DNA of 64,000 nucleotides from Paecilomyces variotii (taxonomy: Eukaryota): NCBI GenBank assembly GCA_004022145.1, contig RCNU01000002.1; one strand, written 5' to 3'. Positions 27,533 through 28,765 of this stretch are shown piece after piece. A program made the position numbers and the translations under genes. A model generated the notes under the pieces. That model did not search any database and was not told the DNA's origin. It saw only the letters and a program-made list of their open reading frames with translations. How positions within the stretch are numbered: the stretch's first letter is position 1; every line of letters begins with the position of its first letter.

Positions 27533-28765
27533 ATGCTCTGGACTCGTCTCCTGCTCAGCGGCCTCGCCTTGGCCTCGGGCCTGGTCGACGCCCGTGCCAT
27601 TGTCGAGAAACTGGGCTTCGACTTCACGCCCAACCTTCTCGCGCGAGAGTAAGACCTCCATATCCTTGTTCTCGCAGTGTCTGAACGAGATTGCAGATTC
27701 CTGAATATCACGTCTCCTCTGAAGCCGTTGGAATCCAGCGGCATCACCAGCAACCCGCGCTGCAACCCACCATGCGGTGCTTGCGGCAGCTCCTGCTCGA
27801 TCTCGTCAGCCTTCAAGAAGCGGAGCCTGGTTGATGCGGTGGTCTCCAACACCACCTCAGCACCAGAGACGACAAACAGATTGGTCAAGCGTGTGCTCCC
27901 GAACGTCCAGCAAGAGGAAATCGGCAGATACCTAACACGGGCTATCTCACGCCTCAAGAACCCGTACAGGCACAGGAACACCAACCAGATCAGTCTTGCA
28001 TATGCCAGTGCGTATCCTGGGAGAATTGAACAGAAAGAGATGAGACGCTGACTGAAAGGGGAAAAAATAGCCAACGGTGACGATTATACCTATGGCGTAG
28101 AGAAAGAGTTTTCCGACTACACGGAAAGCGATGTCCTCAACATCGGTTCGGAACAGCTCACCGGCTGCACGGTGATCACGCTCGTCTCAAGAGAGGCAGT
28201 GTACATGGTCTGTCCCAAAATGTCCGCCTTTCCGTTCCTTTCTCTCTCTAACAGGCTCTGCAAGGCGCACATCTGGGAGACTTTGGCTTTCATTCCCAAC
28301 TGGAAGAAAGACCCCAATGACAGTGACATCGATGAGGATGCCGCCTTTGAGGAGAACTGCATCAACCTTCTCACCAAGAAGAGGAACAGATGGAAGGCCA
28401 AAGGCACGCCTATCACGCCGGAACTGTACGCAGGTAAGACTCCGTACCTGTTCATCATGACCCCGCGCGCGGATCCGGATCTGGACGACGCCGGCAATGC
28501 GCAGGTTCCCTCCTTCGATCAGCAGCGGTACCCGGGACGCATTGCCACCATCGTGAGCACCATCAGAGATCGGCTGGGCGAACAACCAACCGTAGTTTTC
28601 TACAATTATCTGCCGCCGGAGGAGGAGGACGACCCCGCCGAGACCTCGTACCAGGGGAAGGTGCTGTTTGAGTTGGATGCCAACGCAGATGGTAACGGCC
28701 GGGCCAACTTCCGCCTCTGGTACGAGGAGGCCACGGAGAACGGATGGGATCTAGGGCTGATGTGA
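27533..28765 (+). CDS. secreted preproprotein with putative CNF1/CheD-like deamidase domain (~354 aa, 4 exons)
   Basis: Signal MLWTRLLLSGLALASGLVDA; Cys cluster CNPPCGACGSSC; dibasic KKR/VKR sites; introns 27649-27696, 28008-28070, 28208-28264 give IGSEQLTGCTVITLVSREAVYMAHIWE. Confidence 0.75.

Follow-up and report, generated by a model that had tools for sequence, protein, structure and literature searches.

A spliced CNF1-like Cys-His protein of Paecilomyces variotii paired with a chitinase gene: a candidate deamidase payload of a fungal killer toxin

Background

Among deamidases of the CNF1 fold, CNF1 and BLF1 are toxins of bacteria, and CheD and NTAN1 are regulators found in the cytosol. 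A gene located in a 64,000-nucleotide stretch of the Paecilomyces variotii genome (hereafter the window) raises the question of what a protein with the catalytic signature of this fold may be doing in a fungus, behind a putative secretory leader and next to a chitinase gene.

Gene structure and splicing

The gene was delineated as follows.

27533-28765, plus strand: coding sequence of P0004, four exons (27533-27648, 27697-28007, 28071-28207 and 28265-28765), 354 amino acids
27533-27648, plus strand: exon 1 as in the model of P0004, putative signal peptide and start of the pro-region
27649-27696, plus strand: intron 1, 48 nt, GT..AG
27697-28007, plus strand: exon 2, pro-region (Cys motif, N-x-T site, dibasic sites K-K-R80 and K103-R104), after which the mature domain begins; helix 111-126 lies here
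28008-28070, plus strand: intron 2, 63 nt, GT..AG
28071-28207, plus strand: exon 3, opening strands of the predicted CNF1-like sandwich, with the loop L-T-G-C175 carrying the putative nucleophile
28208-28264, plus strand: intron 3, in-frame, length 57 nt, separating the codons of the putative catalytic Cys and His
28265-28765, plus strand: exon 4, A189-H190-I-W-E193, remainder of the catalytic domain, stop codon at 28763-28765

The four-exon translation was identical, letter for letter, to P0004, a hypothetical protein of P. variotii in the NCBI database. The expectation of the initial annotation that automated annotation would likely miss this gene was wrong, because the exact spliced protein had already been annotated there. 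Annotation has yet to give the protein a family name, with no Pfam assignment at threshold.

The gene is transcribed and spliced, as observed in RNA contigs of four runs (X1 to X4) originating from three studies. Intron 1 was spliced out in the contigs of two of these runs (X1 and X2), those of X3 and X4 ending short. Intron 2 was absent from the contigs of all four, and intron 3 was likewise removed in all four, at the GT..AG borders 28207/8 and 28263/4. This cDNA-type check establishes as real the 57-nt in-frame intron (28208-28264) that had been proposed from the genomic sequence. Its signals consist of a GT at 28208-28209, a CTAAC branch-like site around 28247-28251 and an AG at 28263-28264. 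Being devoid of stop codons, the intron would add 19 residues between M188 and A189 if read through. No contig retaining it was found among those of X1 to X4, bearing in mind that contigs lose rare variants. Read-through at this position was visible in P0005 (the model of one strain), P0007 (a Logan record) and P0009, and the splicing of P0006 and of the Lasiodiplodia homolog P0008 was the same as that of P0004. Use of another possible acceptor, the CAG at 28252-28254, would shorten the intron to 47 nt and shift the frame into a stop; none of the X1 to X4 contigs used it.

Conservation of the Cys-His pair

In the spliced protein, L172-T-G-C175-T176 is followed by 13 residues and then by H190, the codons of Cys175 and His190 lying at 28166-28168 and 28268-28270, respectively. 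As the initial annotation had put forward, the LTGCT-x13-H motif is created by splicing and places the His 15 residues after the Cys on a hairpin, formed in the AlphaFold model by strands 176-181 and 185-191.

Conservation was counted over 162 domain copies from 140 related proteins, with the filled alignment columns as denominators. G174 and C175 were invariant (142/142 each), and S182 (139/143), H190 (138/143) and E193 (132/141) nearly so; L172 was kept in 115 of 141 copies and Y303 in 123 of 137. Cys and His occurred together in 128 of the 133 copies filling both columns. Position -6 from the Cys, a Ser (Ser169) in P0004, was more variable: Thr was found 53 times and Ser 17 times among 141 filled columns, most other residues being hydrophobic. 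A Ser or Thr that could serve as third residue of a triad is thus limited to 70 of these 141 columns.

Predicted fold and relation to CNF1

Residues 100-354 were modelled by AlphaFold with pLDDT values mostly above 90. All six Foldseek matches in the PDB with E ≤ 0.001 were CNF1, CNFy or CheD, and NTAN1 came next. A structural comparison against 992 chains (VIA) ranked CNF1 first (Z 9.5, rmsd 3.9, 173 residues aligned), together with NTAN1 (Z 8.3), CheD (8.3), BLF1 (7.3) and YfiH (6.0). Its top 24 rows comprised 23 named superfamily members and 1t8h, an uncharacterised Bacillus protein, and row 25 scored Z 3.1. When 48,161 chains were searched without Foldseek, eight reached Z ≥ 5, all from the superfamily (CNF1, CNFy in two entries, CheD, NTAN1, BLF1, YfiH and YlmD); unrelated folds appeared only at Z < 5. 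The CNF1/CheD/YfiH-like fold that had been suspected from the motif is therefore the one predicted, with CNF1 as top structural match (Z 9.4-9.5) and CheD, NTAN1, BLF1 and YfiH next.

Three sequence comparisons agreed in superimposing C175 and H190 on C866 and H881 of CNF1, and the identical Cys-His spacing (15) of the two proteins, pointed out in the initial annotation, was thereby borne out. BLASTP aligned P0004 with the CNF1 catalytic domain over 65 ungapped columns (E 7e-4), hhalign gave E 9.8e-4 at a probability of 22% for profile A1 against CNF1, and a domain-trimmed profile reached a probability of 66% (E 5.6e-5, 148 columns) against a CNF profile, with both catalytic positions in register. 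The traits of the superfamily found in P0004 were the predicted alpha-beta-beta(-alpha) sandwich fold, the L-x-G-C nucleophile loop and a His at +15 (within 12-17) on the neighbouring strand. The only Pfam match of P0004 was CNF1 (PF05785; residues 136-193, E 0.24), at 11.1 bits against a gathering threshold of 25, and only two of 101 family members matched PF05785 at E ≤ 1. On this score, P0004 represents a new family within the CNF1/YfiH-like hydrolases and should not be filed in the Pfam CNF1 family.

Taken together, a real intron, a CNF1/CheD/YfiH-like fold and a near-invariant Cys/His pair aligned with that of CNF1 designate P0004 as a probable Cys-His amide hydrolase, for which the best chemical reading is, most simply, that of a protein Gln/Asn deamidase. 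Cys175, in the L-x-G-C loop, would act as nucleophile and His190, across the beta-hairpin, as general base/acid. A carboxamide would be hydrolysed via a thioester. Most likely this would be the side chain of a Gln or Asn residue in some target protein, which would become Glu or Asp with release of ammonia. The initial proposal of a protein Gln deamidase or transglutaminase is thereby favoured as regards amide hydrolysis, with deamidation of Gln or Asn as its simplest form.

The same proposal had named Rho/Cdc42 as possible targets. A Rho/Cdc42-specific CNF1 orthologue, deamidating the switch-II Gln, would be a sub-case of the amidohydrolase reading rather than an exclusive rival to it. CNF1 as best structural match and as only Pfam match (below threshold), as well as the spacing of 15, speak for this target by analogy. 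However, structural matches with an rmsd near 4 Å, in which 14-16% of the aligned residues are identical, identify a fold rather than a substrate, the Pfam score lies under the family threshold, and enzymes of the same fold act on targets as unrelated as eIF4A, chemoreceptors, N-terminal Asn and peptidoglycan precursors (PMC7022378, PMC8960835). We consider this particular specificity improbable.

Signal peptide and pro-region

The first residues of P0004 (1 to about 20, 27533-27592) have the appearance of a signal peptide, with a hydrophobic N-terminus (10-residue Kyte-Doolittle mean 2.06) and a cleavage site judged by eye. Next comes a pro-region, some 84 residues long and disordered (pLDDT < 50 at 21-28, 30-69 and 78-90), which contains an N-x-T site as well as K-K-R80 and K103-R104 (27887-27892), both dibasic and of the Kex2 type. 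In alignment A2 (15 sequences), C61 and R104 were invariant (R104 in 15/15), and C72 and L101 were kept in at least 90%. Secretion and Kex2 processing of P0004 are thus suggested by its primary sequence, and the protein would be a secreted pre-pro-enzyme made of a signal peptide, a disordered pro-region with a Cys motif and two Kex2-type sites, and a mature domain (105-354) in which no translocation part was recognisable.

Among 66 full-length-like members of the family, 62 had a dibasic site ahead of the domain and 40 a signal-like N-terminus according to a crude hydropathy rule. The 26 members without an obvious signal-like N-terminus may include cytosolic proteins and miscalled starts.

Distribution of the family

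The family amounted to 138 representatives at 50% identity. A protein atlas search matched unnamed clusters of Ascomycota only, and the sampled clusters carrying a name (16/16) are presumably all from Pezizomycotina, a placement confirmed by look-up in the case of P. variotii. The family is patchy and evolves rapidly, with tandem multi-copy forms and variable neighbours; proteins of P. variotii strains showed 53 and 69 differences over 354 positions. One relative, P0037, was fused to two carbohydrate-binding modules (PF10645).

Pfam searches with the read-through ORF and with single exons gave no meaningful match, and sequence searches of the PDB stayed at chance level (best E 0.25 for P0004 and 0.22, a PIF1 helicase, for profile A1). 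No second copy of the gene was found within the window. A single peptide pattern from A2 retrieved no relative from bacterial and archaeal genomes, a narrow search by which absence is not proven. The scan for related loci was run with A2, since A1 was too divergent. No report of a fungal CNF1-like secreted deamidase was found in the literature, including by term searches of three papers on zymocin clusters, one of them a preprint covered in its main text. A Starship paper matching the term 'cnf1' concerned an unrelated transcription factor.

Gene neighbourhood

Three features flanking the gene were considered.

22327-26870, minus strand: gene for a large, putatively secreted chitinase, LysM, chitin-binding and GH18 domains followed by a C-terminal extension some 730 aa long, ATG at 26870
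26871-27532, no strand: divergent intergenic region, 662 bp between the start codons, putative shared promoter
29497-30876, plus strand: F-box protein P0164, 459 aa, leucine-rich-repeat-like body, downstream neighbour

The divergent chitinase neighbour had been overlooked in the initial annotation. It contains at least one intron near 25009-25046, and its predicted product begins with a signal-like sequence and includes the stretch D-G-I-D-F-D-W-E. Pfam recognised GH18 (E 5.9e-39), LysM (E 7.5e-6, 26.2 bits for a cut-off of 20.9) and, slightly below the cut-off of 27.8, Chitin_bind_1 (E 9.6e-6, 26.2 bits) in the ORF 25050-26882 (minus strand), and the C-terminal part of GH18 (E 3.8e-13) in the ORF 22330-25008 (minus strand). 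Judged by domain make-up alone, it is classed as a putative 'killer-toxin-like' chitinase of subgroup C-II. At the opposite end of the intergenic region, an (AGA)17 microsatellite (27483-27533; Tandem Repeats Finder: period 3, 17 copies, 100% matches) abuts the ATG of the CNF1-like gene. Further away, none of 25 ORFs at 19.3-22.4 kb and 30.8-37.7 kb matched a Pfam family, and no LysM-only gene was present among them.

This pairing recurs. Upstream DNA was sufficient to judge it in the window and in loci L005, L006, L008 and L011, and four of these five had a divergent cell-wall hydrolase gene at about 0.7-1.6 kb. The partner was a LysM and GH18 protein in the window, L008 and L011, and a GH71 protein in L005, the three L loci being metagenome loci; L006 had no hydrolase within 10 kb. 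The chitinase of the window was 53-57% identical to those of L008 and L011. Directly after their catalytic domains, the GH18 protein of the window and the GH71 protein of L005 have a module of roughly 100 aa in common (44% identity, E 4e-10).

According to the main text of a preprint (10.1101/2024.10.25.620242), C-II chitinase genes of Pezizomycotina cluster with genes for small secreted toxins, growth of yeast was arrested by two of the three toxins assayed by intracellular expression, and reviews cited there link C-II chitinases to fungus-fungus antagonism. The divergent chitinase provides the first real support for the idea, raised in the initial annotation, that competing fungi are the target.

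A cytosolic neighbour may also be relevant. P0164 matched the Pfam F-box family (E 2.9e-4, 21.1 bits for a cut-off of 20.5), its AlphaFold model had a pLDDT of 66.5, and its best Foldseek match was 4i6j_B (E 1.7e-4), an F-box/LRR chain from the structure of a ubiquitin ligase with its substrate. By BLASTP (E 1e-17), P0164 is a homolog of the F-box portion of the Aspergillus proteins P0083 and P0150, each of which also has a family member merged into it. No homolog of P0164 was found by tblastn (E ≤ 1) or with a profile in the two loci with downstream DNA (L005 and L006). In other lineages, the adjacent cytosolic repeat protein is an ankyrin-repeat protein. Speculatively, P0164 can be regarded as a candidate cytosolic partner or immunity factor.

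Interpretation of the locus

The presence of a divergent killer-toxin-like chitinase, and the position of the gene in what would be the slot of the small secreted gamma-toxin in zymocin-like clusters of filamentous fungi, lead us to read its product as a killer-toxin payload. In its full form, this explanation takes the product of 27533-28765 to be a secreted Cys-His amidohydrolase serving as the payload of a zymocin-like killer toxin directed against other fungi and assisted by a wall hydrolase, and we give it a probability of about 55%. The cell-wall hydrolase would aid uptake of the payload, and a toxic deamidase would replace the usual anticodon nuclease.

Another possible explanation is that the protein stays outside the cell. 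An extracellular wall-active amidase could act with the chitinase or a mutanase on amide bonds of the wall (wall glycoproteins, peptidoglycan-type peptides, or Gln and Asn of structural proteins), for lysis or feeding and with no cell entry. The fold does include YfiH/PgeF-type enzymes acting on peptidoglycan precursors, matched here at Z 5-6, the partners are wall hydrolases (GH18, GH71), P0037 has carbohydrate-binding modules, and a domain without a translocation part would be spared an uptake step. However, the model scores higher against CNF1, CheD and NTAN1 (Z 8.3-9.5) than it does against YfiH (Z 5.7-6.0), P0004 has the L-x-G-C loop of CNF1 and the same distance from Cys to His, an oxidising exterior is ill suited to a free catalytic thiol, and the neighbouring cytosolic repeat proteins (F-box, ankyrin) fit an intracellular toxin better. 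A wall amidase appears unlikely to us on this balance.

It may also be argued that the enzyme is self-directed, as a transglutaminase or deamidase of the wall or secretory pathway which remodels the fungus's own wall proteins and is co-regulated with a morphogenesis chitinase. DNT, a relative of CNF1, can transamidate; the putative divergent promoter is common to the chitinase, and expression was detected in RNA runs from culture and food fermentation. These points are outweighed in our opinion by the patchy distribution and rapid evolution of the family, unlike those of housekeeping wall enzymes, by its tandem copies and changing neighbours, which fit a conflict system better, and by the ties of C-II chitinases to antagonism between fungi (main text of 10.1101/2024.10.25.620242). 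A self-directed role is accordingly given little credence.

The killer-toxin payload reading can be extended, more tentatively, to a modular scheme. GH18 or GH71 proteins would constitute delivery subunits with a common module, payloads would be swappable, and immunity would depend on degradation, an F-box/LRR receptor encoded by the adjacent gene passing toxin present in the producer's cytosol to an SCF ubiquitin ligase; in other lineages the protective neighbour would be the ankyrin-repeat protein. Doubtful as this scheme is at present, it would, if true, be a case of toxin and immunity paired in a eukaryote, with protection by targeted degradation.

Should the killer-toxin payload reading hold, a secreted, unnamed and widespread fungal family would extend CNF1-type toxin chemistry to contests between eukaryotes, and would offer a testable answer to the question of what C-II chitinases deliver when no nuclease-type toxin is adjacent. 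It also calls for caution, in that the 'gamma-toxin' slot need not hold a ribonuclease. On the practical side, the predicted active-site residues of this Pfam-less family are amenable to mutagenesis, and the protein, from a food-spoilage mould, is a candidate antifungal.

Comparison with known systems

The locus resembles the zymocin-like clusters described in the main text of the preprint (10.1101/2024.10.25.620242) in that a LysM-bearing GH18 gene adjoins a gene for a small secreted protein, in the presence of introns and in one case of GH71 standing in for the chitinase; the use proposed here, against chitin-walled competitors, is also the same. In that text, toxin groups Tox-P1 to P9 are all treated as anticodon nucleases, and the hallmarks of gamma-toxins are a Glu at mature position 8 and a Cys near the C-terminus for a disulfide with the beta part of the chitinase. 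P0004 differs from these toxins by its predicted CNF1-like fold, which argues against a nuclease, and by the lack of both hallmarks. With cleavage after residue 20, placed by eye, its mature position 8 is a Gly, a Glu being found at position 5. Its last Cys is C219 of 354 residues, leaving no C-terminal Cys for a disulfide with the chitinase, and the conserved C61 and C72 sit in the pro-region. The terms 'deamidase', 'AlphaFold', 'Paecilomyces', 'F-box' and 'Kex' do not occur in the main text of the preprint, and the family may already be listed among Tox-P2 to P9, for instance as the gene adjoining GH71 in Aspergillus flavus, with its fold unrecognised.

Within the superfamily, the same fold and Cys-His pair are found in CheD (Z 8.3-8.7), NTAN1 (8.3), BLF1 (6.8-7.3) and YfiH (5.7-6.0). 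The Cys-to-His spacing of 15 in P0004 compares with 17 in CheD (27/44) and NTAN1 (75/92) and 12 in BLF1 (94/106) (PMC7022378, PMC8960835), and the L-S-G-C motif is common to BLF1 and CNF1 (PMC8960835). A third residue orients the His, namely a Ser or Thr at -6 in NTAN1, CheD and BLF1 and a backbone carbonyl in CNF1, with Ser69 before Cys75 in NTAN1 and Thr21 before Cys27 in CheD (PMC7022378). P0004 has a Ser at this position, where Ser or Thr is found in about half of the family copies (70 of 141). CheD, NTAN1, BLF1 and YfiH are cytosolic or bacterially delivered, whereas P0004 carries a putative secretory leader.

The closest parallel is with the catalytic domain of CNF1 (residues 720-1014, PF05785, PDB 1HQ0/1HZG) and with Yersinia CNFy, both of which share the alpha/beta sandwich of the P0004 model. 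For CNF1, 173-174 residues were aligned at Z 9.4-9.5, with an rmsd of 3.9-4.1 Å and 14-16% identity. CNF1 and P0004 have in common an L-(S/T)-G-C-T loop with the nucleophile Cys and a hairpin His exactly 15 residues later, and in the profile alignment a Tyr of CNF1 falls on the conserved Y303. After this His, P0004 has an H-x-W-E motif (E193 in 132/141) which is absent from CNF1. The two proteins also differ in their surroundings: CNF1 is bacterial and is preceded by N-terminal receptor-binding and translocation domains, whereas the fungal P0004 carries a putative eukaryotic signal peptide and a dibasic pro-region.

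Gene structure and splicing

P0004, which NCBI lists for Paecilomyces variotii as a hypothetical protein, is encoded by four exons, and joining these by script produced a protein identical to it (354 aa).

27533-27648, plus strand, exon 1
27697-28007, plus strand, exon 2
28071-28207, plus strand, exon 3
28265-28765, plus strand, exon 4

The three introns (48, 63 and 57 nt) were all bounded by GT..AG. Splicing was assessed by placing RNA contigs from four public runs (three studies) on the gene region; two of the runs were food-fermentation metatranscriptomes and the other two carried the organism label, their RNA status being guessed. 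Introns 2 and 3 were absent from the contigs of all 4 runs, and intron 1 was skipped in both runs whose contigs extended that far. The in-frame 57-nt intron proposed by the initial annotation (intron 3, 28208-28264) is therefore real, and after its removal Cys175 and His190 lie 15 residues apart, as had been noted. The accompanying expectation that annotation would miss the gene did not hold, since the exact spliced protein is already listed. Because intron 3 is in frame and stop-free, an ORF scan passes straight through it, adding 19 residues. Its annotation is inconsistent between strains: it is read through in the models of two database proteins, P0005 (strain DTO271G3) and P0007, so that the catalytic Cys is separated from the His by 19 or more residues.

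A perfect (AGA)17 microsatellite (27483-27533) lies in the 5' leader and abuts the start codon; the RNA contigs were cut there by a repeat filter. Changes in its length could affect expression of the P0004 gene.

Fold and relationship to CNF1

The AlphaFold2 model of P0004, built from a 101-sequence alignment, had a mean pLDDT of 78.9, with residues 100-354 mostly above 90 and a disordered pro-region. Foldseek against the PDB returned six matches at E <= 0.001, all of them CNF1, CNFy or CheD; NTAN1 ranked next, followed by YfiH and BLF1 with weaker scores. Comparison of the model by VIA gave Z 9.5 for CNF1 (rmsd 3.9 Å, 173 aligned residues) and 8.3, 8.3, 7.3 and 6.0 for NTAN1, CheD, BLF1 and YfiH, respectively, row 25 of the result having Z 3.1. 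The same result came from a Foldseek-independent search of 48,161 representative chains, in which the eight chains with Z >= 5 were CNF1, CNFy (two entries), CheD, NTAN1, BLF1, YfiH and YlmD, and the next row had Z 4.8. All three approaches thus concur on the CNF1/CheD/YfiH-like fold that had been suggested. For scale, PMC8960835 gives 3.9 Å over 170 residues, at 5% identity, for BLF1 on CNF1.

Sequence comparisons used the CNF1 catalytic domain taken from the E. coli UTI89 chromosome. BLASTP aligned P0004 with this domain over 65 ungapped residues (E 7e-4), placing C175 on C866 and H190 on H881. The same register was obtained with hhalign for the family alignment against CNF1 (E 9.8e-4, probability 22%), and the domain-trimmed family profile matched a small CNF profile over 148 columns (probability 66%, E 5.6e-5), again Cys on Cys and His on His. 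The statistics of these three alignments are modest, but the alignments are mutually consistent and in agreement with the fold. As the Pfam CNF1 model scored 11.1 bits on P0004, below its cut-off of 25, the protein represents a new family inside the CNF1/YfiH-like hydrolases and does not belong to the CNF1 family.

Family distribution and conserved residues

When 1.84 billion representatives were searched with HMMER, 138 matched at E <= 1e-3, of which 27 reached E <= 1e-10 and five E <= 1e-30. No match to a Pfam family attained the threshold. Among 20 clusters sampled, all 16 that were named were called 'hypothetical' or 'uncharacterized', and one family record was named 'ADP-ribosylation' in UniRef. 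These 16 clusters are all from Pezizomycotina, and four named search matches agree with this.

Conservation was counted over 162 realigned domain copies from 140 family proteins, considering filled columns only. The catalytic dyad expected to be conserved was indeed so: C175 was present in 142/142 copies and H190 in 138/143. The nucleophile loop also comprised G174 (142/142) and T176 (130/143), and further conserved positions were S182 (139/143), W192 (114/141), E193 (132/141), P255 (137/147), Y303 (123/137) and G319 (131/137). Both Cys and His occurred in 128 of the 133 copies filling both columns; the five exceptions had Arg or Gln in the His column, and at least one of them (P0070) resembles intron read-through.

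Several relatives (P0042, P0054, P0060, P0064, P0084, P0107, P0116 and others) carried two to four tandem CNF1-like domains about 330-400 residues apart. These fungal proteins of 780-2638 aa, devoid of Pfam families, may be true poly-toxins or gene-caller merges of tandem genes. P0005 and P0006 carry the same species label as P0004, P. variotii; of its 354 positions, 53 differ in one comparison and 69 in the other, none of these in the signal peptide and most (45 and 58) in the catalytic domain.

Precursor organization

In an alignment of 15 full-length relatives, the hydrophobic N-terminus is followed by a Cys motif (C61 invariant, C72 in at least 90%), a dibasic site (14/15, read by eye), a short N-x-T spacer and L-x-(K/R)-R104, where R104 is invariant and the site dibasic in 13/15. 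The catalytic domain begins immediately after R104, and its only conserved Cys in this alignment is the nucleophile. Among 66 full-length-like members, a crude hydropathy rule detected a signal-like start in 40, and a dibasic site was found upstream of the domain in 62. Judged by these motifs, the precursor looks like a Kex2-processed pro-protein, presumably cleaved at such sites. In the window, C61, C72, the two dibasic sites and the N-x-T spacer of the pro-region are kept within 27697-27892 (residues 40-104). This layout is reminiscent of yeast K1/K28 pre-pro-toxins.

Recurring association with cell wall hydrolases

A large minus-strand gene is divergent from the P0004 gene, with start codons at 26870 and 27533 and 662 bp between them. 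Its product carries a LysM domain, a chitin-binding module (just below the Pfam cut-off), a GH18 domain and a further stretch of some 730 residues, and so has the domain make-up of the C-II chitinases termed 'killer-toxin-like'.

Scanning metagenomes with the 15-sequence alignment located nine loci, and the ORFs of eight were searched against Pfam, L007 being left out as its ORF coordinates were identical to those of L006. Upstream DNA was sufficient at five places (the window, L005, L006, L008 and L011), and a divergent wall hydrolase was found at all of these except L006, where the Pfam search of ORFs found none and ankyrin-repeat and HET ORFs occurred instead. The partners in L008 and L011 were LysM and GH18 chitinases with 53-57% identity to the window chitinase; that in L005 was a GH71 mutanase. 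Since the family members at these loci share only 29-49% identity (best segment) with P0004, the pairing does not reflect one recent inheritance.

The window GH18 and L005 GH71 proteins, whose catalytic domains are unrelated, have in common a module of about 100 residues (44% identity, E 4e-10) directly after these domains; the module may serve for docking or delivery.

24180-24495, minus strand, shared module of the window GH18 protein (residues 172-277 of ORF 22330-25008)
L005:1307-1597, minus strand, shared module of the L005 GH71 protein (residues 348-444 of ORF 242-2638)

In addition, P0037 from Penicillium macrosclerotiorum (1097 aa) has a CNF1-like domain (32-239) fused to two PF10645 carbohydrate-binding modules; PF10645 is a glucan-binding module of yeast septum glucanases. 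The recurring pairing is a new point, and a more interesting one than the original observation.

Other neighbouring genes

The downstream gene (29497-30876) encodes an F-box protein whose AlphaFold model resembles F-box/LRR substrate receptors; as a speculation, it could be an immunity partner of P0004. In Aspergillus pseudonomiae and A. bombycis, the homolog of this gene is immediately followed by a distant family member, the two genes having been merged by gene predictors; P0151 is the F-box gene alone, and the match of P0150 to the full-length family profile begins at position 5 and takes in the signal peptide. In one of the divergent P. variotii strains, the F-box neighbour was 91% identical to that of the window. 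Ankyrin repeats are merged with a family member in the Dactylonectria record P0175, the Neonectria ortholog of that member being separate, and in L006 the family gene is flanked by ankyrin ORFs, which in L010 occur close to it.

L006:7941-8507, minus strand, ankyrin-repeat ORF (Pfam)
L006:10976-11455, minus strand, ankyrin-repeat ORF (Pfam)
L010:1980-2735, minus strand, ankyrin-repeat ORF (Pfam)

Further window ORFs matched Pfam families:

43339-44283, minus strand
40612-42643, plus strand
37689-39119, plus strand
17948-19333, plus strand
12600-14135, minus strand

The families were HNH_2 endonuclease-like, AMP-binding enzyme (two ORFs), Caps_synth/DXD glycosyltransferase, pyridine-nucleotide disulphide oxidoreductase and PHO4 phosphate transporter; ORFs 32566-33675 and 35641-36246 had no Pfam family.

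Proposed role

Given the recurring pairing with wall hydrolases, P0004 is likely to be a fungal killer-toxin payload of the deamidase type. Transcription and splicing of the gene are shown; its product would enter the secretory pathway, lose its pro-region at the dibasic sites and be released with the chitinase, expressed from a putative shared promoter. The hydrolase would then bind the competitor wall and aid uptake, by analogy with zymocin, which is the weakest step. Within the target cell, as fold and conserved dyad suggest, a target protein would be attacked at a Gln or Asn carboxamide by the Cys175 thiolate, and His190 would shuttle the proton. By analogy, Rho-family GTPases would be one candidate target among several.

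Comparison with known systems

According to a 2024 preprint on zymocin-like clusters, genes for C-II chitinases in Pezizomycotina are clustered with genes for small secreted proteins that are candidate toxins, at times together with an immunity gene; of three candidates tested, two arrested yeast growth when acting intracellularly, a candidate toxin gene adjoins a GH71 gene in Aspergillus flavus, and all nine toxin groups were assumed to be anticodon nucleases (10.1101/2024.10.25.620242). P0004 has neither Glu-8 nor a Cys close to the C-terminus, the two hallmarks given there for these toxins. The main text has no mention of deamidase, AlphaFold, Paecilomyces, F-box or Kex, and the P0004 family may be among the minor groups of its supplementary tables (10.1101/2024.10.25.620242). 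A term look-up in later zymocin-field papers found neither 'deamidase' nor 'CNF'.

At the active site, the Cys-His spacing of P0004 (15) equals that of CNF1, in contrast to 17 in CheD and NTAN1 and 12 in BLF1, as given in PMC7022378 and PMC8960835. The Ser at -6 of P0004 occupies the site of the third triad residue in NTAN1 and CheD; this column holds Ser or Thr in only 70/141 family copies, and in CNF1 a backbone carbonyl replaces the third triad side chain.
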